Under the pieces are notes generated by a model. That model was not told the DNA's origin and ran no database searches. It worked only from the letters and a program-made list of their open reading frames with translations. A DNA stretch of 64,000 bases from Candidatus Poribacteria bacterium (lineage in GTDB: Bacteria > Poribacteria > WGA-4E > WGA-3G): the NCBI GenBank assembly GCA_965242965.1, contig OZ251518.1, positions 5,376,001 to 5,440,000 of the forward strand. The letters are read 5' to 3'. The position numbers and the translations under genes are program-made. Shown here piece after piece: positions 11,501 through 42,511 of this stretch (positions within the stretch are counted from its first letter, which is position 1; each line of letters starts with the position of its first letter).

Positions 11501-14500
11501 CTGGCAAATTTGACGCAAGGGACGCTGTATCAGGTTCGGTTGCGTGCGAAGAATGCCGAGGGTATGAGTGGCTGGTATGATGGCAGTGGGACAACTGCGC
11601 CGAACGTTGCACCGATGTTCAGCAGTGGCACAACGGCGTTCCCTTTGAAAGAGAACCGCCAGGCTGTGGGGACAACGGATGCTACCGATGCGGATACGGT
11701 GACTAACGATGTGGTCCGTTATGCGATTAGTGGTGGCGCGGATGGCGCGAAGTTTTTGATTCATGCCGCGACAGGGGCGTTGACATTCATCTCTGCACCG
11801 GATTATGAAACGCCGCAAGACGTGCAAAGCACTGCGCCGGCGAATGCTGCTGGAAATAATGAGTATGTCGTGGTAGTTGAAGCGCAGAGTGGTGCTGGCG
11901 AGCGTCAACTCGCCGTGCAGAAAACGCTCGTGGTGACTGTGGAGAATGTGGATGGCCCTGGAAAGCCGGCTGCCCCGCAAGTGACAGCGATGACACCGAC
12001 TTCGGTGAGCATTAGTTGGAGTGCGCCGGACACGGGGTTGGAGATATCGGATTACGATGTGCAGTATCGGCAAGGGAGGAGTGGTGCATGGAGTGCCTGG
12101 CCTCATACTGGCATCGGCACGACAGCGACGCTCACCGGGTTGACACAGCATGCGGTTTATGAGATTCAGGTGCGCGCGACGAATTCGGAGGGCTCGGGGC
12201 CCTGGTCGGATGCAGTCACGGCGGTACCGCAGGATAACAGGCCGCCGGTGTTCAGCGGTGATACTGTGGTGTTCACGGTGGCAGAAAATACCCCGGCGCG
12301 CACGCCTGTTGTCACTGTCGTTGCGGTTGACGGAGACCCGGCCGATGAAATTACGGGGTATACGCTGAGCGGGACAGATAGCGGTGCCTTCACGTTGGAT
12401 GCGCGCAGCGGTGTCTTGCGGTTTCGTGTATCGCCAGATTTTGAGAATCCGTTAGATGTTGCGCATACGTCACCTGCGCCGGCAGATGCGGCGGGCAACA
12501 ACACCTATATTGTCTTCGTCACGGCGACGAGTGGGACAGGCGGGCGCGCGCTGACAAAGACGCAGCGTCTCACGATTACCGTTACCGCTGTCGACGATAT
12601 GTCCGTCGGGCTGGTGCTTGAGAGTTCGGTTGCGCTGACAGAAGGAAGACGCGTGACAAGTGAACCGAGTTGGACAGTGACGTTCGATTTCTCGATGCCC
12701 CTGGCCGCCGTTGGAGATGGGGCGTTTAGCGTCTCAGATATCAATGTCAGCGTCAGTGGTGGCGCGGGGACAGCGACGTTCGGCGAGTTGACCCGTGCTG
12801 AACCGGCGGATGCGCGTTATACGGTGCCTGTCACCGTGAGCGCGGAAGGCACCTACACGTTCCAAGTGAAAAGCGGCAGTGTTGCCACGGCCACCGGCGA
12901 TACTTATGGCGGTGCCGCCTCGCCGTTGGTGGTGATTTACAATACGCCGCCGGTGATAACCGATGTCACCGTGGTGCCGCCCCCGGCGACAGGGTATATC
13001 GTGGGGAGCGAACTGTCCCTTGAGTTGACATTTGACGATGACAATGTGGATATCCCTGCGAACGTGGATATTACAAATCGGCCGTATATCGTCCTCTATT
13101 TAGGTGAGCGCACGGCGGCGAATCAGCGGCGCGCCTATTGGCAGTCGGCGCGGGATGCGAATTCCACCATTGTCACGTTTGCCTATGAAGTGCAATCAGG
13201 TGATGTTGCGAACGTGGTCCATTGGGAGCCGCGTCTCGTCGTGCCGGAGACTGCACCCATCACGAATGGCGTGAGCGCGATAGTGACAGGCGAGCCAGAT
13301 GACACCCGCGGGGTGCCCGTATCGGATACTGCAGGTATCGTCGTGTTTCCGGGGGAGACGACGCAACCTGCGCCGGGTCAGCCGCAGGAGCCGGTTGCGC
13401 CGTTAACGCAGGAAGTGCCCGTGCTGGGCGCGCCTGTAGTATTTCTGCCGCCAGAGACAGTGCAGCCTGTGAAACCAACGCAGATTTCGCGCACACCGTT
13501 GATTTTCAACGAACTCGGCAACGGTGCCGCGGGTGCCAACGAGTGGCTGGAACTCCGGAACGTCACGGCGGAGGCGGTGCCGCTGAAAAACTGGGGTATC
13601 AGCATCGTCACCGATGCGAAGAAAGTAGACAAACCTTTGGTGAGATTTCCATCGGATGCGGCGTTTAGTGTGCCGCCGAATGGCATTTTGCTCATCACGC
13701 GGCGGTCCCCGGAGAAAACACGGCTTGCAGGCGGGATTGACATCGCGAACCCCGGCAAGACAGGTGCAGTGCATCACTATTTCGTCGCGCCTGAGTTGAC
13801 GCTGCCCGATGATGGACAGTTCCTCTTGATTCTTCGCAATGCGAAGGGGAAACTCGGCAAAGGCGAGAATGTGATTGATGTCGCTGGCGGCGGCGGTCCC
13901 GATACGGATGCCTTTATCGCCGACAAAGGCGACGCGTTCCAGACAGACATCTGGCCCTTGCAAGCGACAGCGCATCCCCGTGAGGACACCGAGGGAACTC
14001 TTGGAGAAGGCAAAGTATGGCGACGCGCGAAGGCGGATAGCGTCGGATACCACAAAGATGCTTGGACACAAGCCGCCTACACCGGAGTCGGCTATGACAG
14101 GGTGACAGAGACCTCACCGGCGACAGCCGGCACACCCGGCTATCCCAACGATGCCGTGAAACCGGTGGCAGCCACACCGAAGGGCAGTGTCACCTTCAGT
14201 GAACTCATGGTGGATTCAGCCGGCGGCAAACTGCCGCAGTGGATTGAGTTGTATAATGCCTCCAAAACGGAAGCACTGAACCTCAACCGCTGGAAACTGG
14301 AAATCCAGAATGTGGATTCTGAGGACTTAGTCGGCAGACCTGTTGTCACCTTAACGCTGAAGGAAAAAATAATTCAACCGAATCAGACGCTCTTAATTGT
14401 CGCGGGGGATGCGCGTGCATCGTCAGCAGATGTCTTTCCTGCCGCGCGCGTCTACAACCTGCTCACCCTGCACGAGAAGAATCTGCGCATCAAAACGGCG

Positions 14501-15172
14501 CGGGATACCTTCTTAAGTGCCGAGGGGTTCACGTTGAAACTGCGGGATAGCGACGGGCAGTTAGTGGACGAAGTCGGGAACACCGATGGAAATCGCAGGA
14601 CGCGCGATGCGCCGGCATGGCAATTCCCGTTCGCCCCGGTTGAATCGGGACGGAGTTCCCTGATTCGGCGTTATGACAAAGGGACTGCCGAAGATGGCAA
14701 GGCGCGAGAAGGTTGGGTGCTGGCGGCGAACATCACTCGTTTCAGTGCTGATGTCGCTTATGGTCACAAGGACGACAAAGGCACGCCGGGATACCGTGAA
14801 GGCGGCGCATTGCCAGTGGAGTTATCCCGTTTCTCGATGACGCGCAATGAAGCCGGTGCGGTTGTGTTGACATGGACGACCGAATCGGAAGTCGACAACG
14901 CGGGATTCAACCTGCGCCGCAGTTTGGAACGCGATAGCGGTTTCACGCTTTTGAATTCCGCCTTAATCGCCGGTGCCGGCACGACGGGTGAGCGTCAGAC
15001 GTATACGTTCACGGATACGTCTGCGAAACCGGGGGTTGAGTATTACTATCAGATTGAAGAAGTTGCGTCTGATGGTAAGCCGGCGACGTTAGCGATGCGT
15101 CTGTTGCGCGGTTCCGTGTCTGCGTCAAATCGGATGCTGACCACGTTCGGTGAAGTGAAACAGCAAAAATAG
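8502..15172 (+). CDS. Giant surface adhesin-like protein: Ig-like, 6 cadherin-like alternating with 5 FN3, Ig-like, 2 lamin-tail domains, C-terminal LPVELSxF domain and sorting motif; N-terminus frameshifted at a C8 tract (ORF 8618..15172 in frame)
   Basis: Six xxENx..DY/FE cadherin-like repeats, five SW.AP..YDVQYR FN3 repeats, FNEL/FSELM..WIELYN LTD motifs; GAGG-RBS ATG at 8502 joins the long ORF only with one extra C in 8533-8540. Confidence 0.85.
8533..8540 (+). repeat. Poly-C (C8) tract in the signal-peptide coding region; candidate slippage switch
   Basis: C8 gives MNITTKYHRKTPPAINVS*; C9 gives a continuous signal peptide into the 2184-aa ORF. Confidence 0.7.
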
Positions 15173-28978: not shown

Positions 28979-29806
28979 TTATTTTTTGTTCATCTCTAAT
29001 CCCGCCATCGTCCGCAAATTCAGCAGCGGTGTCGTCACGCCGCCTGCAGCAGGAAGGACAACCCCTGTATCGTACAACTTCATCGCGGCGACGGTGGCAT
29101 GCGCGACATCTTCCGGCGTGCCGGGACGCACCATGAAGATATAGCCTTTCTCTGCCGCTTCCTCGTAATCGGGAACGCGGACGCGCGATAAATCGGTATC
29201 AATCACACCGGCAGCGATGCCGTTCACCTTAATGCCGTGTGCCGCCAAGCGGCCCGCATACGCACGCATGCTCATCTCTAAACCTGCTTTTGAGATGCAA
29301 TACGCTGTCCGATTGTCCGATGCCATCGTATCCGAAATGGAGAGCGTATAGATAATGCACCCGCAGACCTGGTTGGCTACCATGTAGTTCGCCACGCGCT
29401 GCGTCAGGAAGTGCGGGGCCTTGAGGTTCGTGTTGACAACCAGATCGAACTGGTTCGGCGTTTCCTCAAGAATGTCGGCGATGCGCGTGATGCCGGCGTT
29501 GTTGATAAGGATATCTACCTTCCCGAAGGCATCGAGCGCGGTGTCAAGCAGTTTTTGGTGCGCCTTTAAATCGCCGATGTCGGCTTGGATAATCACCGCT
29601 TTTCTGCCGAGTGCTTCAACGGCGTGTTGCACCTCTCTGGCGGCCTTCCGGTTTTGGTTGTAGTTAATCAGCACATCGGCACCTTGGCGCGCCAATTCAA
29701 TCGCAATGGCGCGCCCAATACCGCGACTAGCACCAGTGACGATGGCGGCTGTGTCGGTGAGTGAAACGTCTGTCGCGAAAAAACCGAGGGACGTGTCTGG
29801 ACGCAT
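28979..29806 (-). CDS. SDR family oxidoreductase
   Basis: VTGASRGIG, NNAG, YCISK. Confidence 0.92.
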   Translation of the reverse strand: MRPDTSLGFFATDVSLTDTAAIVTGASRGIGRAIAIELARQGADVLINYNQNRKAAREVQHAVEALGRKAVIIQADIGDLKAHQKLLDTALDAFGKVDILINNAGITRIADILEETPNQFDLVVNTNLKAPHFLTQRVANYMVANQVCGCIIYTLSISDTMASDNRTAYCISKAGLEMSMRAYAGRLAAHGIKVNGIAAGVIDTDLSRVRVPDYEEAAEKGYIFMVRPGTPEDVAHATVAAMKLYDTGVVLPAAGGVTTPLLNLRTMAGLEMNKK

Positions 29807-29832: not shown

Positions 29833-31038
29833 TTAATCTGAGTATGGATCGGCGGCATCGCGCAGGGCATCCCCTAAAAAGTTGAAGGCGATAACTACAA
29901 CGAGGACCGGCACTGCCGGAAAAATCAGCCACGGATAGTGGAGCAAGACGGTGACGCGCTGTGCCTCTTCCAATAGCACTCCCCAACTCGTCATCGGTGG
30001 CCGGATGCCTAAGCCGAGGAAACTGAGCGAAGTCTCTCCCAAAATCATACCGGGGATGGCGAGGGTAGCGATGACGATGATATGGCTATAACACCCCGGC
30101 AGTAAGTGTTTAGTGATGATGTGCCAATGTCCGGCACCGGCGGCGCGTGCCGCCATCACGAAATCGCTCTCCCGATACGCAAGCACCTTGCCGCGCACCT
30201 GCCTCGCCAATCCACCCCAGCCGATAATCGACAAAATAATCGTGATACCGAAGTAAATCTGGATGCTGCTCCAGCCGGGAGGTAAAGCCGCACCGAGTGC
30301 CATCCACAGCGGAATATTCGGAAACGCCGAGAGGATTTCAATGATGCGCTGGATGAGGTTATCTACCCACCCGCCCCAATAGCCGGAAATCGTGCCGAGG
30401 ATGGAGCCGAAGACGATACTCAAAAATACGCCGACTAAGCCGAGTGTCATTGAGACGCGCCCACCGTAGATCATCCGAGAAAGCAGGTCGCGTCCCATCC
30501 GGTCCGTGCCGAACAGGAACATCGGGCCCTCGGAACTAAACAGATGCCGCCGCCCCTTCGCATCCTTGAAAAAGAGCGTGACAGGATGCCGTTGCTCCAC
30601 ATCTCGCGTAAATTCCAACTCAAGACTTTCCGGATTGCGAACCGACTTGAGTCCGTAGACATACAGCCCTTCGCTGGGCGAAAAGTGCAGGCGTTGCGGC
30701 GGCACATGACGCAGCCGCATGTTAATCTCGTTATAGTGATACGGCGCGAAGAAATCGGCACCGAGCGCGACGATGTAAAAGAGGAGCAGCACCCCACCCG
30801 CGATGAGCCCCATCCGATTCTTGCGAAATCGCTGCCAGATGAGTTGACGATAACTCAAGTGTCCTAATGCTGAAGAGCCCTCGGCATCTTCCGGTGAGCC
30901 CGGGTCATTATCGTAGCGCGGGGGCCTGTCCCCCGCGTTTCCCCTGTCTGCTGGCCCGGTGTTATCGTAGTGCGGGGGCCTGTCCCCCGCGTTTTTCCGG
31001 CCTGCTGTCTCATGAGCGTTTGAATTATCGTTATTCAT
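29833..31038 (-). CDS. Peptide/nickel ABC permease (OppC/DppC-like) with REP-derived N-terminal repeats
   Basis: FGTDRMGRDLLSR, FVMAARAAGA, ETSLSFLGLG..PPMTSWG, FNFLGDALRDAADP; NAGDRPP(H/R)YDN twice. Confidence 0.92.
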   Translation of the reverse strand: MNNDNSNAHETAGRKNAGDRPPHYDNTGPADRGNAGDRPPRYDNDPGSPEDAEGSSALGHLSYRQLIWQRFRKNRMGLIAGGVLLLFYIVALGADFFAPYHYNEINMRLRHVPPQRLHFSPSEGLYVYGLKSVRNPESLELEFTRDVEQRHPVTLFFKDAKGRRHLFSSEGPMFLFGTDRMGRDLLSRMIYGGRVSMTLGLVGVFLSIVFGSILGTISGYWGGWVDNLIQRIIEILSAFPNIPLWMALGAALPPGWSSIQIYFGITIILSIIGWGGLARQVRGKVLAYRESDFVMAARAAGAGHWHIITKHLLPGCYSHIIVIATLAIPGMILGETSLSFLGLGIRPPMTSWGVLLEEAQRVTVLLHYPWLIFPAVPVLVVVIAFNFLGDALRDAADPYSD

Positions 31039-32089
31039 ATCGAATCCTCGGGTCTACCCATGCCAGGGCGATGTCTGCTAATAGGTTTCCGATGACGAGG
31101 AGCAGACTCAGCATCATCAACAGCGTGCCAGCGAGGTAGATGTCTTCGTTGAGCAGGCTTCTTAAGAGTATCGGCCCCACCGTCGGCAAACCGAGCACGA
31201 TGGAAACGATAGCGGAACCGGAGAGGATGCCCGGCAGGCTCATCCCTAAAATGCTGATGAGCGGATTGATGGCGATGCGCACAGCGTGCTTCCCGACAAC
31301 GACAATTTCTTTCAATCCCTTTGCACGCGCAGTCTGCACGAACGGCTGTCCTAGCACGTCAAGCAGATTGCCGCGCATGATGCGCATTAAACTCGCCGTG
31401 CCGTTGACACCCACGACAATCACGGGAATCCAGAGATGTTTGATCAAATCTCCTAGTTTGCCCCATGTCCACGGCGCGCCTTCATAGTAGGCGGAGAAGA
31501 GCCCGAACAACGGCACGCCGAAAATGTCGAACGCGAACACCATCAGTGACAACGCCACGAGAAACGCCGGCAGCGACATCCCCACAAAACTGAGGAACGT
31601 CAAAAAATGGTCTGACCATTTATACTGGTGCGTCGCCGAATAAATACCGAGTGGAATGGCAACGACATACGTGAAAATCAACGAACCGATGGAGATGATT
31701 AGCGTGAACGCAAGTCTATCCCATATCAGTTCATGCACCTCGCGTTTATACTCAAACGATTCGCCGAAATCGCCGCGCACGAAGCCGCTCAGCCAAATGA
31801 AATAGCGTTCCCACAGCGGCGCGTTCAAGCCATAACGTTCTCGCAGTTCGTCGACTTGCGCGAGGGAGCTGCTATCGCCGAATTCTTCCTCAAGCCGCTG
31901 AATTTCCCTGTCAAGGTAATCGCCTTGCGGGAGTTGTATGATGATAAAAGAGATGATAGAAATCGCCAGCAGTGTCGGCAATGCGAGCAGACAGCGGCGC
32001 AGGATGTAAGTGCCTATGGTTTTTCCTCCTCTCTCAGGCAGAATTCCCGGTAGGCGCGGTTTGAAATCGCGCCTACGGAGATTATTCAA
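31031..32089 (-). CDS. Peptide/nickel ABC permease (OppB/DppB-like); start either TTG 32089 or ATA 32017
   Basis: YILRR, GDFGESF, TARAKGL, NLLADIALAWVDPRIRY. Confidence 0.92.
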   Translation of the reverse strand: MNNLRRRDFKPRLPGILPERGGKTIGTYILRRCLLALPTLLAISIISFIIIQLPQGDYLDREIQRLEEEFGDSSSLAQVDELRERYGLNAPLWERYFIWLSGFVRGDFGESFEYKREVHELIWDRLAFTLIISIGSLIFTYVVAIPLGIYSATHQYKWSDHFLTFLSFVGMSLPAFLVALSLMVFAFDIFGVPLFGLFSAYYEGAPWTWGKLGDLIKHLWIPVIVVGVNGTASLMRIMRGNLLDVLGQPFVQTARAKGLKEIVVVGKHAVRIAINPLISILGMSLPGILSGSAIVSIVLGLPTVGPILLRSLLNEDIYLAGTLLMMLSLLLVIGNLLADIALAWVDPRIRYE

Positions 32090-34017
32090 CGTCCGTTTTT
32101 ATCTATCCAGCACTGTTCGGGATAGCTCGTTGCGGGGGTGACGATAGCCCAGGGCCCCAAGATGCCGTCGTTTGGCACGTTATGAAAATGGTTCGCGACG
32201 ACGAGCAGCGAAGGCGAACGCGCCGCCGACCCGAGATGAAAAGGACCTTCGTCAATGTGGATGCGCACGGCATCGCGGACGTATTGGTGCCGCTGTTTTT
32301 CATCGGGTTCCCGCTTGATTGCGTCGTATAAATCGAGCAGTTTTTTGAGCGGCCCAGTAGGCGGTTCGCCTTTTTCGCCGCCGGTCTCATACCATTTTCC
32401 CACCTTCGGATGCCAATACTTGGGCAGCGTTGGAAACACCCAGTCAGGATAGGTAAACAGATCCATTTCTGCCTCACCGTGCATGCTAATCGTGAATTTG
32501 CCGAGGGTGCGGCGCAAACTCAACTCTGCGCCCGGCGGCGTGTAGAGCATCGTTTTTAAGCCGAGTGCCTCCCATCCCTCCTGAATAATCAACCCGATGT
32601 CGTTCTCTTGGCTGTTCAGATTGGAGCTCGGCACATCCATCAGCATCTCAATCCGTCTGCCATCGTAACGTAGGCGATAGCCGTCCTTATCGCGCGTGGT
32701 TAACTGCATTTCGTCTAAAAGTCGGTTTCCCGCGGCGATGTCAAAATCGGCATCGGCGCGCTTCCATTCTTCAAACAGCGTCTGTCCATCTTCGTCAGCG
32801 AAGTGCCAGCCTTCTTGGCTCACCGTAGCGGCTTGCGGTTCGAGCAGCCCGCGCCACGCAATCTCGTTGCATTTCTCTCTATCAATGCCGTAGGCGAGTG
32901 CCTTCCGAAACCGCTGATCGCGGATGAGCTGCCGTAACACCGGGTCTGGCGCAGTCCAGTTAATCAGGATGGCTGGCTGCGCGCCTGCCGTGCTTTTCCA
33001 CCGCCGCACGGTATAGCCGCCCTTCTCTTGGCCCTTCAGATAGAGAGCCAAATCTCGTAATTCCATGCCGCGGTATTGGCAATCAATTTCGCCTGCGAGG
33101 ATTTTGAGGACGCGCACCTGCGGTTCCGGCACCAAGCTGGTTTTCACTTTGTCAATGTAAGGCAGCTGCCTTCCTTCCGTGTCCACTACATAATAATACG
33201 GATTGCGTTCCAATTCAACCCGAAAGCCACCCTTTTCATATTTTCTGATGCGCCACGGCCACAGCGTTGGACGTTCGGGGTTTTGGTGCGGGAGATTCTC
33301 CTTCTCGAATTGGATAAAATTTTCATGCGCCGAACCGCTATCGGGGTGAAACTGCATCATGTAGTGCTTTGGGATGTTGTATTGATTGCACCACCAAAAC
33401 CCTGTCGCTAGCCACAGCGGGACGAGCCAATTCGGTCCGGCGAATTTCATCACGATGGTGTAGTCATCGGGTGTTTCAACCTCCATCGGGATGCCGTTCA
33501 CTTTGCACCAGACAGGGGGGCTACGTTTGTATCGTTCGTCAAGGCAGAGTTCATACCAGAAAGCGAACGATTCGGAGGTATAGGGATGCCCGTCAGACCA
33601 GCGGACTCCCTTACGGAGATATAGCGTCAGCACGCTGCCATCTTCGTTGAATTCCCATGATTCGGCGATGCCGGGTTCCAGACCGGATGCATCGAATTTC
33701 CAACGAATGAGCGGCGCGTAACCTGCAGTCATCTTCCATGTCCCGAGCTCTGGGTGCGTATGAAATCGGTGCCAGATGCCGCCGTAGATGCCGGGCTTCT
33801 CGTAGCCATCAAAGTCGGTTTTAGCGACGAGTGGCTTTTCCGGCAATCGTTCGGCGAGGGGAGGCAGTCCGCCATCGGCAACCTTTTTTGCGAGCATGGG
33901 TGCCTCTTTCGCCTCCAGTCCGTTTGGGAAGCTGGAGGTATCTTCGACGCGGTTTTCCGCGCATCCAACGAGCAAAACGAGTAAGGTGAACGTGAAAATC
34001 TGTCGACATATTTTCAT
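32086..34017 (-). CDS. ABC substrate-binding lipoprotein, family 5 (OppA/DppA-like)
   Basis: Lipobox LVGC, EAPMLA..LPPLAERLP, LRKGVRWSDG, ERNPYY, FRKALAYGIDR. Confidence 0.9.
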   Translation of the reverse strand: MKICRQIFTFTLLVLLVGCAENRVEDTSSFPNGLEAKEAPMLAKKVADGGLPPLAERLPEKPLVAKTDFDGYEKPGIYGGIWHRFHTHPELGTWKMTAGYAPLIRWKFDASGLEPGIAESWEFNEDGSVLTLYLRKGVRWSDGHPYTSESFAFWYELCLDERYKRSPPVWCKVNGIPMEVETPDDYTIVMKFAGPNWLVPLWLATGFWWCNQYNIPKHYMMQFHPDSGSAHENFIQFEKENLPHQNPERPTLWPWRIRKYEKGGFRVELERNPYYYVVDTEGRQLPYIDKVKTSLVPEPQVRVLKILAGEIDCQYRGMELRDLALYLKGQEKGGYTVRRWKSTAGAQPAILINWTAPDPVLRQLIRDQRFRKALAYGIDREKCNEIAWRGLLEPQAATVSQEGWHFADEDGQTLFEEWKRADADFDIAAGNRLLDEMQLTTRDKDGYRLRYDGRRIEMLMDVPSSNLNSQENDIGLIIQEGWEALGLKTMLYTPPGAELSLRRTLGKFTISMHGEAEMDLFTYPDWVFPTLPKYWHPKVGKWYETGGEKGEPPTGPLKKLLDLYDAIKREPDEKQRHQYVRDAVRIHIDEGPFHLGSAARSPSLLVVANHFHNVPNDGILGPWAIVTPATSYPEQCWIDKNGR

Positions 34018-34976
34018 TCCGAATATTCCTCCTTTTCGAGTGAGGCGGCGAAGGTATCCAGGTCTGCGCACACGCGTGCGAAGAGTTCGTGGATGTGCTT
34101 GGCATGCGCTTCGGTGAGTTCATAAATCAGTTCTTCACTGTAGATGTTATGAACTTTGTGGCGGAAATCTAGCAAATCTTTTAATTGCGCCGCCGTTTCC
34201 TCGGATATAACGGGCGGCCGCTCCGTGCGGCGTGCCCCCATCTGTTGCAGCAACTCGTTATGCCATTTCTCGCTATTTGGGACATGCCTGTCTACCGCGC
34301 GCGCTATCCTCTCAAAAATCGTTTCTACGCCATCGTAAACTTTAGTGAGTTTCATAGCAATCGATTCCTCTATATATTTGCTATGATTCGGTGCAACTAC
34401 TTTCATGTCATCCAACGCTTCTGCGATACTCACCACAGTTCGCTCAATTTTAGCGCGTTCATCGTTGATGCGCTGGATGAGTCGGCTTCGGTTCATTTCG
34501 TAGTGTGCTCTCTGTTCCGCTGCTCTCGGCGCCACATCGCCGGCAAACGTGTTTTGCTGTGTCCCCCCGACGCGGTTTTCAATAAAAACGGCTTGCCTTT
34601 TCACGCGCTCCCGGAAGAGTCCTTTCGTCTCCTCAAAGGTGACGAAATCGATGTTGAAAGTTGCATCGAAGTAGACGACTTTGCCATACGCGTCCCAATA
34701 GGCTTCGTTAGGCATGCCCCAGGCGACAATATCAATATCCGAGAACGCCGAAAACGCCTCCCTCTCTGCGAGGGAGCCGAACACGGCGACGCGCGTTGCG
34801 CCGAAGTCTTGATAGAGCATGTCTGCAATTTGATGTGCCGTTTTCCATGCGCGTTGGAGCAATGCTTCATCGACATGCCGCGTTTTCCACTGCTGCTCTA
34901 AATGCCGGCGGCAGTCGGCGAGTTCCTCCGGCGACATTGTATGCGGGGGTGGATAGGTTGCTGTGACTTTGCGCAT
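34014..34976 (-). CDS. MNT-HEPN single-chain fusion, copy 3 in transcription order
   Basis: FGS..SDIDI nucleotidyltransferase motif; WH..LL.QM..RPPV..FRHKVHNIY HepT-like motif; ATGA overlap with oppA. Confidence 0.85.
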   Translation of the reverse strand: MRKVTATYPPPHTMSPEELADCRRHLEQQWKTRHVDEALLQRAWKTAHQIADMLYQDFGATRVAVFGSLAEREAFSAFSDIDIVAWGMPNEAYWDAYGKVVYFDATFNIDFVTFEETKGLFRERVKRQAVFIENRVGGTQQNTFAGDVAPRAAEQRAHYEMNRSRLIQRINDERAKIERTVVSIAEALDDMKVVAPNHSKYIEESIAMKLTKVYDGVETIFERIARAVDRHVPNSEKWHNELLQQMGARRTERPPVISEETAAQLKDLLDFRHKVHNIYSEELIYELTEAHAKHIHELFARVCADLDTFAASLEKEEYSE

Positions 34977-34977
34977 T

Positions 34978-35943
34978 TTAAGCGTCCTCCTGCTGTGTAG
35001 CGAGTGCAGCGGCGAAGGTATCCAGGTCTGCGCATACGCGCGCGAAGAGTTCGTGGATTTTCATCACGTGCACCTTGGTGTAGTCGTAAACCAATTTGTG
35101 CCCGTAAATGTGAGTCACCTTGTGGCGAAAATTCAAGAGTTCTTCAAGTAACCTCGCCGTTTCGTGGGAGATGACAGGCGGCCGCCCTGCGCGCCGTTCT
35201 GCCATTTGTGCGAGGAGGCTTTTATGCCATTCCGCGTCACTAGGTAGAGCCCCATCTACCTCCTGGGCAACGCGTTCAAAAATGTTCTTGATGCCATTGT
35301 AGACCTCGGCAAGATCATAGGCAATCACCTTTTCAAATGCGCGTCTGTATTTCGGGGCAACCTCCTCCAGGCCTTCCAATTCTGTTGCGATTTCAGCGAG
35401 GGTTGATTCTATTTCGACGCATTCATCGGCGATGCGTTGGATAAGTTTGCGCCGATTCATTTCATAAGTTCCTCCCTGTTCGGCGGGATTCACCGGCTGT
35501 TGAAGAGCGGCGGCTGGGTATTTGTAGAGGCCAGCCTCTATTGTTTCAATACCGATGGCTTGCTGCTGTATCCGTTGGCGGAAAAGTCCCTTCGTCGCCT
35601 CAAAATTGACCAGGTCGATCTGGAACTCCGGACTAAAGCCGGTTGTTTTCCCGAGGGCATCACAATACTCGGCATCCGAAAGTCCCCACACGGCGATGTC
35701 AATATCTGACCGCGGTGTAAACCAGTCCCTCTCGGCGAGGGAACCGAACACGGCTACCTGCGTTGCGCCGAAGTCTTGATAAAGCATGGCTGCAATCTGA
35801 TGTGCCGTTTTCCATGCGCGTTGGAGCAATGCTTCATCGACATGCCGCGTGGCCCACTGCTGTTCTAAATGCTGGCGGCAGGCGGCGAGTTCCTCCGGCG
35901 ACATTGTATGCGAGGGTGGATAGGTTGCTGTGACTTTACGCAT
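34978..35943 (-). CDS. MNT-HEPN single-chain fusion, copy 2 (intact R-x4-H-x-Y)
   Basis: Start matches paralogue MRKVTATYPP; SDIDIAV; FRHKVTHIY. Confidence 0.85.
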   Translation of the reverse strand: MRKVTATYPPSHTMSPEELAACRQHLEQQWATRHVDEALLQRAWKTAHQIAAMLYQDFGATQVAVFGSLAERDWFTPRSDIDIAVWGLSDAEYCDALGKTTGFSPEFQIDLVNFEATKGLFRQRIQQQAIGIETIEAGLYKYPAAALQQPVNPAEQGGTYEMNRRKLIQRIADECVEIESTLAEIATELEGLEEVAPKYRRAFEKVIAYDLAEVYNGIKNIFERVAQEVDGALPSDAEWHKSLLAQMAERRAGRPPVISHETARLLEELLNFRHKVTHIYGHKLVYDYTKVHVMKIHELFARVCADLDTFAAALATQQEDA

Positions 35944-35944
35944 T

Positions 35945-36907
35945 TTAAACTCCCTCCTGCTGCGTGGCGAGTGCAGCGGCGAAGGTATCCAGGTCTGCGC
36001 ACACGCGTGCGAAGAGTTCGTGGATGTGCTTGGCATGTTCCTCGGTGAGTGCGTGAACCAGTTCCTCTCCATAGCTCTTGCGAACCTTGTGGCGGAACTC
36101 TAAGAGTTCTCTTAAGAGTGCTGTTGTCTCTAGGGAGAGGACAGGCGGCCGCCCTGCGCGCCGTTCTGTCATTTGAGCGAGGAGGTTTTTGTGCCACTCA
36201 GCGCCGCTTGGGACATGCGCGTCCACTTCACGAGCGATGCGTTCAAAAATGTTCTCTATCCCCTCGTAGACCTCGGCAAGATCCGTGGCCATCGCGATTT
36301 CAATGAATTCTCCGTATTTAGTGTCAGCTTCTTCATGCATCGCTACTGCTCTGTCGATCCTTGCAATCGTCCGCTCAATTTTTGCGCGTTCATCGTTGAT
36401 GCGCTGGATGAGTCGGCTTCGGTTCATTTCGTAGCATCCTCCCGGTGCCGCCGCTCTCGGCGGCACATCGCCGGCAAACGTGTTTTGCGGTGTCTGCTCG
36501 GCGCGGTTTTCAATAAAAACGGCTTGCCTTTGCACGCGCTCTCGGAAAAGTCCTTTTGTATTTTCAAAAGCGACGAAATCGATGTTGAAAGTTGCATCGA
36601 AGTAGACGACTTTGCCATACGCGTCCCAATAGGCTTCGTTAGGCATGCCCCAGGCGACAATATCGATATCCGAGAACGCCGAAAACGCCTCCCTCTCGGC
36701 GAGGGAGCCGAACACGGCGACGCGCGTTGCGCCGAAGTCTTGATAGAGCATGGCTGCAATCTGCTGGGCTGTTTTCCATGCGCGTTGGAGCAATGCTTCA
36801 TCGACATGCCGTGTTGCCCACTGCTGCGCCAAGTGCCGGCGGCAGGCGGCGAGTTCTTCCGGCGACATCGTATGCGGTGGCGGATAGGTTGCTGTGACTT
36901 TGCGCAT
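35945..36907 (-). CDS. MNT-HEPN single-chain fusion, copy 1
   Basis: SDIDIVA; FRHKVRKSY (catalytic His replaced by Lys). Confidence 0.85.
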   Translation of the reverse strand: MRKVTATYPPPHTMSPEELAACRRHLAQQWATRHVDEALLQRAWKTAQQIAAMLYQDFGATRVAVFGSLAEREAFSAFSDIDIVAWGMPNEAYWDAYGKVVYFDATFNIDFVAFENTKGLFRERVQRQAVFIENRAEQTPQNTFAGDVPPRAAAPGGCYEMNRSRLIQRINDERAKIERTIARIDRAVAMHEEADTKYGEFIEIAMATDLAEVYEGIENIFERIAREVDAHVPSGAEWHKNLLAQMTERRAGRPPVLSLETTALLRELLEFRHKVRKSYGEELVHALTEEHAKHIHELFARVCADLDTFAAALATQQEGV

Positions 36908-36948: not shown

Positions 36949-38628
36949 CTACGTCACCTCAAGTTGGAGTTGCGTTTCTTCGACTTCTCGCACGGCTTTT
37001 GGAACTTCGCTTCTGGCAGAACTTGGCATCTGTGGTTGCCGATTTTCCATCAAATCGCTGACACTCCAGAATTGGAATGCGGGCCATGTTTGGCCATCTA
37101 ACGGATGCACGAATGTCCGCTGTCCCACCTGTTCCACCCGCGCTTTCGCCTCGGGTGTCAACACGTCGGCATAGTCCTTGTGCCGGTGTCCATGCAGGCT
37201 GATGAAAATGCCCATCGTTGCTTCTTCCGCCGACATCACGCCGAGGAATTCATCTATCTCACGCCGGCCGATGCGCTTGCTCGTCTTGACTTGGACGAGG
37301 ATGAGCCCCTCTTTATCCTGTCCTTTTTCGTCGACACCGAGGTAAAGCGTGCCCCATCCATCGATGCCGCCATCACGGCTGAGGCTCTGACTCGGCTGCA
37401 ACAGGAGACGGCCCTGTGCATCCCGAATCTGACCGAGGATGAAATTCTGGAAGTCATACCGTGCCTGATGTTTGTTTCGCCGGTTATTTTTGCTCTTCTC
37501 AGCAAGTGCTTGGATTTCCTGTGCCTCAAGTTCCGCGAGTTGGACGGCTTCCTCATAAGAGGTAGGCGTGTTGTAGAGGGAGAACCCGTTTCCGAGCCGA
37601 AGTTCTTCATCGGCGAATGCATCCTGCAGGCGTTCCTTGACGACGTTAATCGCGCCGTAGCTGATGTCCATGCCGAGCCAGCGGCGATTGAGTTTCTGGG
37701 CGGCATGGAGCGTCGTGCCGCAGCCACAGAACGGATCGAGAATCACATCACCTTCATTTGAGGAGGTTTTGATGAGCCGTTCTAGCAACGCGAGGGGTTT
37801 CTGTGTCGGATACCCCAGCCGTTCTTTCGCCTGCGAATTCAGCACCGGTACTTCAAAGACATCAAAAGCCGGCGTGCCCTCAGCTTTTCTATCAACAACC
37901 CGGCTGTATCGCGACATGTCAATCTCGCCTTTCGCGACAGCGGCATCAAATACCTCGCGGTCCTCCACGATAATCTGCCGCCGCCTCACGCCTTTATCAT
38001 TGTAAGTGTTCGTGCTATACCCCCGTGCAGAGGCTTCGGTTCTCTTCCTCGCCACATACTGGGTATTGAATACCAGATTCTGGGTTTTGGAATAGAATAG
38101 CAAGATATCGTGCATCCGCTGGTACTGGTTTGAAGCGGCCGCCCACCGCCGATAAAACCAGACAATCTCATTCCGGAAGTTTTCTTCCCCGAAGATTGCG
38201 TCCATCATCACTTTGAGATAATGACTCGCCGTCGCATCGCAGTGGAGATAAACGCTGCCTGTCGGTTTCAACACGCGATGGATTTCAATGAGTCGTTCTG
38301 CCATGTAGAAGCAGTAAGCCGTCATCGGTTTTTCACCGAGGAGGAGATATACGCCGCGCGCCATGTTTGCAATCTCCGCGCGTGGCGAGGCGAGGAGCCG
38401 TTCGTAAGCGCGCTGCGCGGCTGCATCCCAGTGCCACATATCGTGGAATGCCATCGCCGGTGGCTTTTGCTGTTTACCCTTTTCCTTGCGTTGAAAGGGC
38501 CGGTTATAGTTTGCATTGGAGTTGAAAGGCGGATCGAGATAGCATCCGTCCACCGTTTCATCTGCAATATATTTTCGGAGATTGTAGAGACAATCACCGT
38601 AAAAAAGCGCGTTACTGAGTGTCGTCAT
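36949..38628 (-). CDS. Beta-class amino DNA methyltransferase fused to Mrr-like endonuclease domain, paralogue A
   Basis: YLDPPFNS, GYPTQKP, LDPFCGCGTT; C-terminal DGGIDG..LVQVK. Confidence 0.88.
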   Translation of the reverse strand: MTTLSNALFYGDCLYNLRKYIADETVDGCYLDPPFNSNANYNRPFQRKEKGKQQKPPAMAFHDMWHWDAAAQRAYERLLASPRAEIANMARGVYLLLGEKPMTAYCFYMAERLIEIHRVLKPTGSVYLHCDATASHYLKVMMDAIFGEENFRNEIVWFYRRWAAASNQYQRMHDILLFYSKTQNLVFNTQYVARKRTEASARGYSTNTYNDKGVRRRQIIVEDREVFDAAVAKGEIDMSRYSRVVDRKAEGTPAFDVFEVPVLNSQAKERLGYPTQKPLALLERLIKTSSNEGDVILDPFCGCGTTLHAAQKLNRRWLGMDISYGAINVVKERLQDAFADEELRLGNGFSLYNTPTSYEEAVQLAELEAQEIQALAEKSKNNRRNKHQARYDFQNFILGQIRDAQGRLLLQPSQSLSRDGGIDGWGTLYLGVDEKGQDKEGLILVQVKTSKRIGRREIDEFLGVMSAEEATMGIFISLHGHRHKDYADVLTPEAKARVEQVGQRTFVHPLDGQTWPAFQFWSVSDLMENRQPQMPSSARSEVPKAVREVEETQLQLEVT

Positions 38629-40217
38629 TTCAGCACCTCCGCAACGGCCAATTCCAGCTGCATCTCTTCGACTTCGCGAACCGCCTTTGGAACTTCGCTT
38701 CTGGCAGTGCTTGGCATCTGTGGTTGCCGATTTTCCATCAAATCACTGACGCTCCAGAATTGGAATGTGGGCCATGCCTGGCCATCTAACGGATGCACGA
38801 ACGTCCGTTTTCCTACCTGTTCCACTCGCGCTTTTGCCTCGGGTGTCAACACATCGGCATAGTCCTTGTGCCGGTGTCCATGGAGGCTGATGAAGATACC
38901 CATCGCCGCTTCTTCCGCCGACATCACACCGAGGAATTCGTCTATCTCGCGCCGGCCGATGCGCTTGCTCGTCTTGACTTGGACGAGGATGAGCCCCTCT
39001 TTGTCCTTCCCTTTTTCGTCAACGCCGAGATAGAGGGTGCCCCATCCATCGATGCCGCCATCGCGACTCAGACTCTGACTCGGTTGCAAGAGGAGTCTGC
39101 CTTGCGCGTCCCGAATCTGGCCGAGGATGAAGTTCTGGAAGTCATACCGTGCCTGATGCTTGCTGCGGCCGTGCTGATTCTTCGCTTGAACCTGCTGGAC
39201 TTCCTCAGCCTCCCGTTGTGCTAAGGCCACCACCTGTTCGTAAGAATCAGGCGCGTTGTAGGTGGCAAAGCGGAGTTCTTCGTCTGCGAAAGCGTCTTGC
39301 AGGCGTTCTTTGACGACGTTAATCGCGCCGTAGCTGATGTCCATACCCAGCCAGCGGCGGTTCAGTTTCTGTGCGGCGTGGAGCGTCGTGCCACAGCCAC
39401 AGAACGGATCGAGAATGAGATCTCCCTCATTGGAACACGCTTTGACGATGCGCTCAAGGAGTGCCAGCGGTTTCTGGGTGGGATACCCCAATTTTTCGGT
39501 AGAGAAACTTTTGATCATAATTGAGTCAAGTCTATCCCCGGGATGACAATTCCAAGTGTCTTCTATCGGGATACCCTTGCCTGTCGGTTTCGACCCGTCT
39601 CGTCGGACATAATCCGGCGGATACGGCAAATACTCCTTGTTAAACACTTTTTGTGCTGCGGGAGTTTTCGTATAGTAAAGCAACGTATCGTGATTGCGGA
39701 TCCAACCGCGCTTCTGCGTTTTAAACCCGCTCACCCAGCCGATTCGCCAGATAACTTCATTCCGGAAGTTTTCTGTCCCGAAAATCGCGTCTAGCATTAC
39801 CTTGAGATAGTGACTCGCCGTGGCATCGCAATGGAGATAGACGCTGCCTGTCGGTTTCAACACGCGGTGAATCTCGATGAGCCGTTCTGCCATGTAGAAG
39901 CAGTAAGCTGTCATCGGTTTTTCGCCGAGGAGGAGATACACGCCGCGCGCCATGTTTGCAATCTCGGCACGTGGCGAGGCGAGGAGTCGTTCGTAAGCAC
40001 GCTGCGCGGCTTCATCCCAGTGCCACATATCGTGGAATGCCATCGCCGGTGGTTTCTTTTGTTTCCCCTTTTCCTTGCGTTGAAAAGGCCGGTTGTAGTT
40101 TGCATTGGAGTTGAAAGGCGGATCGAGATAACATCCATCCACCGTTTCATCTGCAATATATTTTCGGAGATTGTAGAGACAATCGCCGTAAAAGAGGGCA
40201 TTTTCAAGGTTTTTCAT
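38625..40217 (-). CDS. Beta-class amino DNA methyltransferase fused to Mrr-like endonuclease domain, paralogue B
   Basis: Near-identical to A outside the TRD and one linker; ATG overlaps the oppF stop (TGATG). Confidence 0.88.
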   Translation of the reverse strand: MKNLENALFYGDCLYNLRKYIADETVDGCYLDPPFNSNANYNRPFQRKEKGKQKKPPAMAFHDMWHWDEAAQRAYERLLASPRAEIANMARGVYLLLGEKPMTAYCFYMAERLIEIHRVLKPTGSVYLHCDATASHYLKVMLDAIFGTENFRNEVIWRIGWVSGFKTQKRGWIRNHDTLLYYTKTPAAQKVFNKEYLPYPPDYVRRDGSKPTGKGIPIEDTWNCHPGDRLDSIMIKSFSTEKLGYPTQKPLALLERIVKACSNEGDLILDPFCGCGTTLHAAQKLNRRWLGMDISYGAINVVKERLQDAFADEELRFATYNAPDSYEQVVALAQREAEEVQQVQAKNQHGRSKHQARYDFQNFILGQIRDAQGRLLLQPSQSLSRDGGIDGWGTLYLGVDEKGKDKEGLILVQVKTSKRIGRREIDEFLGVMSAEEAAMGIFISLHGHRHKDYADVLTPEAKARVEQVGKRTFVHPLDGQAWPTFQFWSVSDLMENRQPQMPSTARSEVPKAVREVEEMQLELAVAEVLK

Positions 40218-41224
40218 CAGACTCCTTTTAATTCCAACGTCTCGCTGTGATGACACGCTACCTGCACACCGGGCGCGACTTCTCGGAGTTGCGGCGTTTC
40301 TTGTTTACACTGCTCGGTTGCGTAACGGCACCGTGGGTGGAAATGACACCCGGTCGGCGGTTGCCCCGGGTCTGGCACGTCACCCTCTAATCGGATTTGT
40401 TCGCGTTTGCGTTGCACGCTCGGGTCGGGGAGCGGCACGGCGGATATTAACGCTTCCGTGTAAGGATGCTTTGGCGCGCTATACAGTGCCGCCGCATCGC
40501 TTATCTCCACAATCCTGCCGAGATACATCACTGCCACTCTATCGCTGATATGCTCAACAACGCTCAAGTCGTGCGCGATAAAAATATAGGAGAGTTGGAA
40601 CTTCTCACGCAGTTCCGCCAACAGATTCAGAATTTGTGCCTGCACAGAGACATCAAGTGCCGAGACCGGCTCATCGGCGACAATCAGTTCGGGATTCAGT
40701 GCCAATGCGCGCGCAATCCCGATGCGCTGACGTTGTCCACCGCTGAAGGCGTGCGGGTACCGCCGCATATCCTGTGGTTTCAACCCGACAGATTCCAAGA
40801 GTTCGGCGATACGTTCTTGGATTTGCGATTTCGTCAACATTAACGTTTGTGTATTGACGCGCAGCGGCTCTCCGACGATGTCCCCTACTGTCATCCGCGG
40901 GTTGAGGGAAGCGTGCGGATCTTGGAAAATCATCTGGATGCGCCAGCGATAAGGTTGCATCTCGCGATGCGTCAGTGTCGCCAGATCTACCTGTTCCTTT
41001 CCAAAGGTAAAGCTGCCGCTCGTCGGTGGAATTAAGCGGAGGATGCACCGTCCCGCAGTTGTTTTGCCGCATCCGCTTTCACCGACGAGGCCAAGCGTTT
41101 CGCCGCGCTGCACGTCAAAACTAATACCGTCTACCGCTTTGACATGGCCGACGGTGCGTTGCAGGAGCCCTTTCTGGATTGGAAAATATTTTCGGAGGTC
41201 TCGCACCTCTAGCAGTTTTGTCAT
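40217..41224 (-). CDS. Peptide ABC ATP-binding protein (OppF/DppF-like)
   Basis: [40 protein letters not shown]. Confidence 0.95.
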
Positions 41225-41249
41225 GGTTTTTGTTAGTTTTGCCGGACAG

Positions 41250-41479
41250 GCGAGGGACAGGCCCTCGCCCTACGATACCCGCGTGGTGTTTGGCGAGGGA
41301 TAGTCCCTCGCCATGCGTTTTGCTGTCAGGGCGCATCACCTCTGTAGGTCAGGATCGCCAGATCCTGACCCGTTTGTGATCAGGCGATCACAAACTACAG
41401 CGGTGGGCCCGATGCCTGCCGGTATTCGCCCACCCTCCAAGGCGGGATAAATACCGAAACGGAGATATGAAACACCCTC
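41250..41479. repeat. REP-like cluster plus solo TIR end between the two ABC ATPase genes
   Basis: ggcgagggacaggccctcgccctac, doublet 41342-41400; 41440-41479 is the reverse complement of the left end at 19021. Confidence 0.75.
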
Positions 41480-41491
41480 AGTAATTTGGTT

Positions 41492-42511
41492 TTACGTTTT
41501 TTCATGCAGCCAGCATCGCGCTGCATGTTTATTTTCGACGATTTTGAGTTCCGGCATCTGTTCGCACGCCGACATCCGTTCCGCGCATCGTGGCGCGAAC
41601 GAACAGCCAGCAGGCAGTCCCAACGGATGCGGCACCGTCCCCGGAATGGAGGGCAACGTTTCTTGTGCTGTCCCACCGAGAACGGGAATGGATTTGAGTA
41701 GCCCGTGCGTGTAAGGATGCAACGGGTTATAGAAAATGTCGTCAACGCTTCCCTTTTCAACGACTCGCCCGGCATACATGACAACGACTTCATCGGCGAG
41801 GTCGGCGATAACCCCGAGGTCGTGCGTGATGAGCATAATCGCCATCCCCATTTCGTCTTGGAGTGCCTGCATCAGTGCCAGCACTTGTGCTTGGATGGTG
41901 ACATCAAGTGCTGTCGTCGGTTCATCGGCGATGAGGAGTGCAGGCGAGCAACAGAGTGCCATCGCAATCATGACGCGCTGCCGCATGCCGCCGGAGAGTT
42001 GATGCGGGTATTCATCAACGCGCTGCGCAGGCGCGGGGATGCCGACGCGGGCGAGCATCTCAATAGCACGTTCTCGCCCCGTTTTCTTGTCAACTCCCTC
42101 GTGCAGTATCACTGCCTCCGCAATCTGATTGCCGACGGTGTAGACAGGGTTGAGGGATGTCATCGGCTCTTGGAAAATGATGGCGATTTCGTTGCCGCGG
42201 ATCTGGCGCATCAACTCGCTTTTCGGTGAGACTTGCGCGATATCCAACGGTGTTTCGTCGCCATTACGGTAAAATAGCAGTTCACCTGCCTCAATGCGCC
42301 CTGGCGATGGCACGAGTTGGAGCAGCGATAGCCCGGTAATGCTTTTCCCGCAACCGCTTTCACCGACAACGCCGACGGTCTGCCCGCGCGCAATTTCAAA
42401 ACTGACATCGTTCACGGCGTTGACGATGCCGTCTTCTGTCGGAAAAACGGTTTTCAGACCGGAAATTTCCAATAGCGGGTGTTGATAAGATTTTTCGGTT
42501 GTTGATGCCAT
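41492..42511 (-). CDS. Peptide ABC ATP-binding protein (OppD/DppD-like)
   Basis: [39 protein letters not shown]. Confidence 0.95.

Follow-up and report, generated by a model that had tools for sequence, protein, structure and literature searches.

Organization of the MNT-HEPN array

A 64,000-nucleotide (nt) stretch of the genome of a Candidatus Poribacteria bacterium (GenBank assembly GCA_965242965.1, contig OZ251518.1, positions 5,376,001 to 5,440,000; here called the window and numbered from its first base) carries three consecutive minus-strand genes, each of which encodes a single-chain fusion of an N-terminal MNT nucleotidyltransferase domain with a C-terminal HEPN domain of the HepT-like_2 family. 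Copy 1 (P0003; 320 amino acids [aa]; positions 35945-36907) is the first gene of the array, copy 2 (P0002; 321 aa from its MRKVTATYPP start; 34978-35943) the middle gene, and copy 3 (P0001; 320 aa, with the tail SLEKEEYSE; 34014-34976) the last. The array was found to be a three-gene set of intact, recombining paralogs of an MNT-HEPN family that is common in Poribacteria. Three such units had been described in an earlier interpretation made from the DNA letters (the sequence-only reading), and all of the strings that it quoted were located: RHKVRKSY, RHKVTHIY, RHKVHNIY, DLAEVY, ERRAGRPPV and HELFARVCADLDTFAA. Direct repeats, 300 nt long, recur at intervals of 964 and 967 nt with 69-91% identity; protein identity is 65% between copies 1 and 2 and 74% between copies 1 and 3. 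Longest-open reading frame (ORF) calls overextend copy 2 to 364 aa (34978-36072) and the downstream binding-protein gene to 661 aa (32086-34071), in each case into the upstream gene; the conserved starts are at 35943 and 34017, respectively.

Using hidden Markov model searches, as the sequence-only reading had proposed, HepT-like_2 (PF20797) was identified at the C terminus of all three copies (E values of 1e-25 to 2e-24; 86.2-90.2 bits, Pfam gathering cut-off of 27). Polbeta (PF18765) was matched at the N terminus (E values of 1.5e-7 to 2.2e-5), where copy 2 alone passes the gathering cut-off of 26.9 bits, at 31.9 bits, and copies 1 and 3 lie just under it (25.7 and 24.9 bits). The Pfam scan of the three copies returned no match at an E value of ≤0.1 to PF01934 (HepT-like/DUF86), KNTase_C or NTase_sub_bind; PF01934 also had no match in the whole genome, with a control search positive in 8 of 14 reference genomes. 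The sole relevant match in an NCBIfam scan was MntA_antitoxin for copy 2, below threshold (27.4 versus 60 bits). Only the MNT domain matched a PADLOC candidate, PDC-S09 (E value of 1e-8), there being no model for the protein as a whole, and a search of PDB sequences matched only the MNT part (1wot, 1no5 and 5yep_A), leaving the HEPN part without a sequence-level match.

The MNT catalytic residues G67, S68, D80, D82 and D110 are present in all three copies. From the ORF translation and an alignment of 66 sequences, the motif of copy 1 (G67-S68 ... D80-I-D82) was placed at 36662-36709; the corresponding GS...DID motifs of copies 2 and 3 lie at 35698-35745 and 34731-34778. Across the 66 aligned sequences G67, S68, S79, D80 and D82 are invariant and D110 is conserved in at least 90%.

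Mosaic structure and recombination

To describe how the copies are related along their length, sliding-window DNA identity, Nei-Gojobori ratios of nonsynonymous to synonymous substitution (dN/dS), a chi-square of pair agreement along the gene and a permutation of third codon positions were used. Over codons 1-60, copies 2 and 3 have 90-97% DNA identity (dS of 0.12), and copy 1 has 87-93% with either (dS of 0.30-0.42). Over codons 61-180 the closest pair is copies 1 and 3, at 85-100% identity and a dS of 0.14, versus 35-77% and a dS of about 1.65 for copy 2 against either of them. All pairs diverge over codons 181-240 (45-78%; dS of 1.6 to saturated), with copies 1 and 3 at 45-57% and a saturated dS in codons 181-220. 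Copies 1 and 2 then share a block at codons 241-262 (dS of 0.23; 90% identity over codons 241-260), on either side of which their dS is 1.6-1.9, and all pairs agree again over codons 291-312 (dS of 0.15-0.45; 83-97% identity over codons 291-310). The sharing of an MNT core by copies 1 and 3 and of a HEPN segment by copies 1 and 2, both noticed in the sequence-only reading, was therefore borne out, while copy 2 has its own MNT core and its own HEPN type.

The best-agreeing pair shifts significantly along the gene (chi-square of 100.6, 16 degrees of freedom, P = 2.6e-14). As the same mosaic was recovered from third codon positions only (chi-square of 73.4, permutation P ≤ 2e-4), it points to recombination or gene conversion, beyond mere uneven constraint, in line with the earlier proposal that units with near-identical ends and mosaic interiors had diversified by recombination. 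Within this genome the MNT cores of copies 1 and 3 share 96% identity, versus 80-93% across genomes for either type, which indicates concerted evolution of the MNT core of these two copies.

Contigs assembled from four DNA runs of sponge metagenomes are fragmented in the array, none spanning it, and join homologous positions of neighboring units. These joints, which are few (positions 34744-35717 and 35717-36675), skip 967 or 972 nt in three of the four runs and include back-joints, each side measuring only 26-30 nt; strains that differ in copy number or mosaic form could explain them, as could artifacts of the assembly graph.

Distribution of the family and its chromosomal slots

A search with copy 2 retrieved 788 proteins at an E value of ≤1e-3. 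Among the 120 listed, all were 306-322 aa long with both domains, and every one with a named source was from Candidatus Poribacteria. An exhaustive search yielded 2,261 representative clusters, including stand-alone HEPN (155-170 aa) and stand-alone MNT (120-130 aa) proteins, and in the ESM Atlas fused PF20797 and Polbeta clusters were found in Cyanobacteriota and fused PF01934 and Polbeta clusters in Archaea. The genome of the window (G000) itself has seven fused copies, corresponding to seven PF20797 matches above the cut-off, and fusions turned up in 23 of the 24 same-family genomes, at 1-8 matches each. Fusion had been regarded as exceptional in the sequence-only reading; it is instead how the proteins of a large family normally occur, and a fused type VII system has been described (PMC13000451).

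An alignment-based search identified 75 Poribacteria loci for the copy-number survey that had been proposed (a single-protein query of reference genome contigs gave none). In 53 of the 75, two to four copies lie within 6 kb, always on one strand, so the tandem array and the fusion are both ordinary for this lineage. Copy number also varies within the genus: three in G000, one fusion (with three methyltransferase genes) in G002, and at least two, at a contig end, in G001. A metagenome scan for relatives returned only one unrelated locus at 26% identity.

The array occupies one of two chromosomal slots that are conserved across the phylum, in a housekeeping rather than a mobile context. Slot A, represented by 23 loci and also the slot of the window's array, comprises an ECF sigma factor gene, an unnamed gene, two oligopeptide transporter ATPase genes and one to three fusions, followed by an SDR gene in 22 of the 23; one slot A locus has a second ATPase pair with a fusion. 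The order in slot B is SDR, SRAP, E1 dehydrogenase, fusion, DUF6785/6784, further fusions in most loci, VWA-CoxE and ADH. Slot B, whole or in part, accounts for most of the other 52 loci and for the second cluster of the window's genome (L009). In most slot B loci, one MNT-HEPN gene is followed directly by the gene for the DUF6785 and DUF6784 protein (643-648 aa; L009 8561-10507 and 42 related loci), which precedes any further MNT-HEPN copies.

Orthologue types and selection

Orthologue types were defined by segment-wise identities. Copy 1 belongs with P0006-P0015, which are 68-97% identical to it in HEPN segments and carry FRHKVRKIY; copy 2 belongs with P0004 and P0005, 82-100% identical outside the shared N terminus; and copy 3 belongs with P0017-19, P0022 and P0024 (82-100%) and G001_A (78-93%), most of which carry FRHKVRNIY. 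The dN/dS between the copies of the array is 0.28-0.33. Copy 1 against its G002 orthologue gave 0.24, and copy 3 against its G001 orthologue gave 0.25 overall, with 0.24 over residues 159-230, 0.09 over residues 231-290 and 0.80 in the linker. Neutral decay of copies 1 and 3, at a dN/dS of about 1, had been named as the result that would speak against functional toxins; with values of 0.24-0.25 against orthologues, neither copy is decaying, and every copy type is under purifying selection.

The HEPN motif

The HEPN motifs are R272-H-K-V-R-K-S-Y279 in copy 1 (36071-36094), R273-H-K-V-T-H-I-Y280 in copy 2 (35104-35127) and R272-H-K-V-H-N-I-Y279 in copy 3 (34140-34163), each preceded by Phe (FRHKVRKSY, FRHKVTHIY and FRHKVHNIY). 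Numbered from the Arg, a His at +5, as in the canonical R-x4-H motif, occurs in copy 2 alone, and the Tyr at +7, in the register of RX4HXY, is found in all three copies and in 94% of the 66 aligned sequences. Both observations had been made in the sequence-only reading and stand. Its contrast between one active site, in copy 2, and two decoys is not supported. The Arg, the adjacent His at +1, the Tyr at +7 and the MNT GS...DxD are kept in all three copies, and copy 1 has in addition the Arg at +4 that is typical of the family. Among the 66 sequences, the HEPN residues Y215, D230, Q246 and R254 are invariant and R273, H274 and Y280 are conserved in at least 90%, and position 278, that of the R-x4-H His, is not conserved.

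In the Poribacteria loci, 131 members had a recognizable motif (a further 22 of the 153 fell outside the search pattern, some of them truncated), with Asn at +5 in 107, Tyr in 16 and His in 8. In the wider representatives, His was at +5 in 30 of 94: among 66 stand-alone proteins there were 21 with His and 25 with Asn at +5 and 59 with Arg at +4, and among 28 fused proteins there were 9, 14 and 21, respectively. The family signature is therefore R-H-x-x-(R)-x-x-Y, and copy 1, with its Arg at +4, is the most typical copy by the wider family consensus. As His at +5 is not conserved in the family, it does not follow that copy 2 is the sole active site. The residue after the HEPN Arg is usually N, D or H, according to PMC3710099.

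Predicted structure and pairing

In an AlphaFold2 model of copy 2 (pLDDT of 85.1, pTM of 0.77), residues 16-132 form the MNT domain and residues 159-314 a HEPN domain of five helices, with a disordered linker in between at 137-156. Using VIA-align against all representatives, residues 163-315 best matched the HepT toxin 7ae2_A (Z of 14.9, root mean square deviation of 2.9, 139 residues aligned), followed by 5yep_B, also a HepT toxin (residues 167-310, Z of 14.6), and 1ylm_B (residues 162-317, Z of 14.3). Although helical bundles can score a Z of about 13 by arrangement alone, so that these values are only slightly above that level, the matches cover nearly the whole chain. Residues 36-136 matched the MNT antitoxin 8xeh_E (Z of 10.8). 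At full length, ANT(4') was matched by VIA-align at a Z of 8.3 and a root mean square deviation of 9.9, and the top rows in Foldseek were ANT(4') and AadA (E values of 2e-3 to 1e-2, TM of 0.21-0.31; TM of 0.23-0.28 at an E value of 2e-3). The HEPN domain is thus predicted to have the HepT fold, and the earlier assignment of the proteins as single-chain MNT-HEPN fusions related to type VII HepT/MntA is supported by fold.

A HEPN-HEPN homodimer of copy 2 was predicted with a score of 0.62, versus 0.00 for the best of three controls; among reference cases, 20 of 30 solved pairs but only 1 of 23 single chains scored as high, a rough calibration since our own alignment was used, and the pass may only reflect likeness to, or memory of, solved HepT dimers. 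Three runs agreed in at least 84% of contacts, with a partner pLDDT of at least 79. The predicted interface is symmetric and consists of residues 177-213 and 280-282, with Tyr280 contacting residues 177-181 of the partner chain. Residues 177-213, which form HEPN helices 1-2 (35305-35415 in copy 2), are also the most paralog-specific segment; the matching segments are at 36272-36382 in copy 1 and 34341-34451 in copy 3.

HEPN active sites are formed at dimer interfaces (PMC13000451), and on this ground heterodimers of the copies had been proposed in the sequence-only reading. It was found that 21 of the 23 predicted interface residues vary among the copies, versus 60 of 133 other HEPN positions (Fisher P = 2.5e-5), and restricting the comparison to residues 159-230 gave 19 of 20 and 24 of 52 (P = 1e-4), a contrast that is overstated because interface residues are mostly exposed and the comparison set includes buried ones. 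The copies differ mostly on the predicted HEPN pairing surface, which points toward separate homodimers and makes heterodimers less likely.

Operon context and neighboring genes

The array is embedded in the operon of a peptide ABC transporter, whose minus-strand genes are tightly packed. Upstream are two oligopeptide ABC ATPase genes (40217-42511), the conserved neighbors of slot A, and downstream are the genes for a family-5 solute-binding protein and two permeases (29833-34017), all on the minus strand; an SDR gene (28979-29806) comes after the permeases, and an ECF sigma factor gene is also among the flanking genes. At the junction of copies 1 and 2 (35932-35965), GGAGG within the tail of copy 1 is followed by TAA, one base and ATG, and copies 2 and 3 are joined in the same way (34965-34998), so that at both junctions the GGAGG falls within the final codons of the upstream gene (..QQEGV and ..QQEDA). 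At the junction of copy 3 with the peptide-binding-protein gene (34003-34035), GGAGG precedes an ATGA stop/start overlap. As the gene ends are near-identical and hold the ribosome-binding site of the next gene, these ends also carry the translational-coupling signal. The composition profile showed no foreign island and no GC anomaly at the array, and a promoter and terminator scan gave 6 promoter-like sites where 4.3 ± 2.6 were expected, with no convincing terminator on the minus strand of the array.

Between the ATPase genes and the array lie two minus-strand genes, each encoding a DNA methyltransferase fused to an Mrr-like endonuclease. A 41-nt spacer separates fusion 1 (559 aa; 36949-38628) from the start of copy 1; fusion 2 (530 aa from MKNLEN; 38625-40217) has an ATGA overlap with fusion 1, and its start overlaps the stop of the ATPase gene (TGATG). 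These two tandem N6_N4 methyltransferase and Mrr_cat fusions (36949-40217) are near-identical over residues 1-155 and 262-559 and 74% identical overall, the swapped central block of about 100 residues probably being a target-recognition domain. With conserved ends and a variable center, the mosaic of this pair resembles the style of the array. The methyltransferase family is greatly expanded in this genus: G000, G001 and G002 have 48, 45 and 53 matches, respectively, versus 0-27 per genome in the other genera searched. In this genus, a methyltransferase-Mrr gene is directly upstream of MNT-HEPN in both slots and about 3 kb from a solo copy (window 36949-40217; L009 5353-7113; L010 2519-3568; L086 4379-9361), and the numbers of methyltransferase genes and MNT-HEPN fusions are three and one in G002, as against two and three in G000. 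Among the 150 listed of 386 matches, methyltransferase genes in these positions were restricted to this genus. A phylum-wide functional methyltransferase-HEPN system was considered and rejected, as a methyltransferase neighbor was found in only 2 of 75 loci outside the genus. Elsewhere in the window, a 2,184-aa ORF lies on the plus strand at 8618-15172, and there are several ORFs of 995-1,091 aa.

Interpretation of the array

The reading that we tentatively favor, holding it to be somewhat short of an even chance, is that the array comprises three insulated, self-AMPylating modules of a type VII-like kind. An active MNT domain would adenylylate the Tyr seven residues past the invariant Arg in the HEPN helix, and this modification would control a HEPN domain acting as a homodimer through helices 1-2. 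Divergence of the interface would keep the paralogs as separate homodimers, not as one active enzyme and two decoys. Gene conversion homogenizes the first 60 codons, the last approximately 20 codons, the gene junctions and the MNT core of copies 1 and 3, with HEPN helices 1-2 remaining paralog specific and conserved among strains. If the HEPN domain cleaves RNA, the Arg-His pair at 0/+1 would have to stand in for the canonical Arg...His(+5), the His at +1 lying one helical turn from +5. A fuller version of the idea is doubtful in our view: that the three genes specify self-AMPylating HEPN enzymes, insulated from one another and with a noncanonical Arg and His(+1) site, whose interface cassettes are shielded by selection from gene conversion, and that these are chromosomally fixed, phylum-wide, parallel RNase switches wired into transporter and metabolic operons.

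Several points weigh against self-AMPylating modules. Copies 1 and 3 lack the canonical R-x4-H His, as do most family members, and MNT-fused HEPN domains are described in a 2013 survey as typically losing catalytic residues and probably being inactive substrate-binding domains (Anantharaman et al. 2013, PMC3710099). The conserved surroundings consist of housekeeping genes and not mobile elements, which is unusual for toxin-antitoxin modules. The predicted dimer contains no high-confidence MNT-HEPN contact, and the exposure of interface residues inflates the contrast described above.

A serious alternative, if on balance unlikely, is that the proteins are domesticated nucleotidyltransferases, the paralogs differing in the small molecule or protein that they nucleotidylate, perhaps in connection with the neighboring transport and metabolic genes. 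This alternative arises because MNT-fused HEPN domains typically lose their motif; PMC3710099 describes exactly such a fate for them, and His at +5 is largely absent here. It is likewise consistent with the syntenic housekeeping slots of all 75 Poribacteria loci, the presence of the gene in 23 of the 24 same-family genomes, translational coupling to transporter genes, purifying selection on every type and the full-length Foldseek matches to ANT(4') and AadA. However, the best per-domain matches are HepT toxins (Z of 14.3-14.9), well above the full-length match to ANT(4'), and neither KNTase_C nor NTase_sub_bind was matched at an E value of ≤0.1. The Arg, adjacent His and Tyr are conserved at 90% or more in the HepT register, the predicted dimer is formed between HEPN domains, and the family includes stand-alone HEPN and stand-alone MNT relatives of the sizes given above, as in two-gene toxin-antitoxin pairs.

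Very unlikely is a role as single-chain abortive-infection sensors of the CapRel kind, with a variable HEPN surface that recognizes phage proteins and a defense cluster formed with the methyltransferase-Mrr genes. CapRel, a fused toxin-antitoxin, is cited as an analogy in PMC13000451, and such a role would fit the concentration of diversity on one surface, the variation in copy number among species of one genus (three in G000, one in G002 and at least two in G001), the methyltransferase-Mrr genes directly upstream of the arrays in both slots of the window's genome and the match of the MNT domain to PDC-S09. Against it, the variable segment is 90-100% conserved across strains within each type with a dN/dS below 0.3, so that there is no arms-race signature; moreover, the neighbors are housekeeping genes, and outside the genus a methyltransferase gene adjoins only 2 of the 75 loci. 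The least probable reading is that of the earlier note, in which copy 2 is the sole competent HEPN toxin and copies 1 and 3 serve as decoys or heterodimer partners through a shared dimeric active site: R-x4-H in copy 2 only, active sites at dimer interfaces (PMC13000451) and a predicted HEPN-HEPN dimer in which Tyr280 touches residues 177-181 of the partner would suit it, but His at +5 is no family feature, the orthologues of copies 1 and 3 are conserved (HEPN dN/dS of 0.09-0.24), 21 of 23 interface residues differ among the copies, and G002 has a single copy without His at +5 (FRHKVRNIY), so that partners of the copy 2 type are not required.

Were the proteins of the favored self-AMPylating reading to combine self-AMPylation with RNase activity while lacking the canonical His, what counts as an active HEPN site would have to be defined more broadly. 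Fixed positions in housekeeping operons of sponge symbionts would suggest domesticated toxin-antitoxin modules that are regulatory rather than selfish, and paralog differences on the predicted dimer interface, with gene conversion elsewhere, would make a clear natural case of paralog insulation.

Comparison with known systems

The closest single-chain system is FhepTA (SO_1440) of the Shewanella oneidensis prophage CP4So, a fused MNT-HEPN protein published in 2026 that oligoAMPylates its own Tyr (PMC13000451). FhepTA and the array proteins have in common a single chain, an N-terminal MNT domain, a C-terminal HEPN domain and a conserved Tyr beside the HEPN motif. Self-oligoAMPylation of the Tyr by MNT and a requirement for HEPN dimerization are further features of FhepTA that the array proteins would share. 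FhepTA is 276 aa long with a linker of 3-5 residues, whereas the array proteins are about 320 aa with a disordered linker of approximately 20 residues. Its HEPN domain is of the HepT type found in type VII HepT/MntA systems, with R-phi-xxx-H, in contrast to PF20797 with R-H-x5-Y and without a conserved His at +5, and it is a prophage-borne single gene, whereas the array family occupies conserved chromosomal slots in tandem sets of one to four.

The best structural matches for both domains are the two-gene type VII HepT/MntA systems (SO_3166/SO_3165, PDB 5yep; cyanobacterial HEPN/MNT, PDB 7ae2). These share with the array proteins the Tyr register of RX4HXY and the MNT GS...DxD, but they are encoded by separate genes, have the canonical R-x4-H and belong to PF01934, whereas the array proteins are fused and belong to PF20797. 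ANT(4') and AadA resemble the array proteins in that MNT is fused to a helical, HEPN-like C-terminal domain without the full R-x4-H; they differ in having antibiotic substrates, and the similarity is weak (TM of 0.22-0.31), with no Pfam match to their C-terminal domains. Stand-alone PF20797 proteins (about 160 aa) are of the same HEPN family and carry F-R-H-x-x-R-[N/H/S]-x-Y but are, unlike the array, encoded by separate genes. A literature search found no functional study of these stand-alone proteins and no mention of PF20797, and PF20797 fusions are a large, uncharacterized branch of the HEPN/MNT world. Fused MNT-HEPN proteins (FhepTA in 2026 and the 2013 survey) and tandem toxin-antitoxin-like paralogs were already known. 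The array is of this known kind and not a new category; what it adds are fixed chromosomal slots, tandem arrays and diversification focused on the predicted interface.

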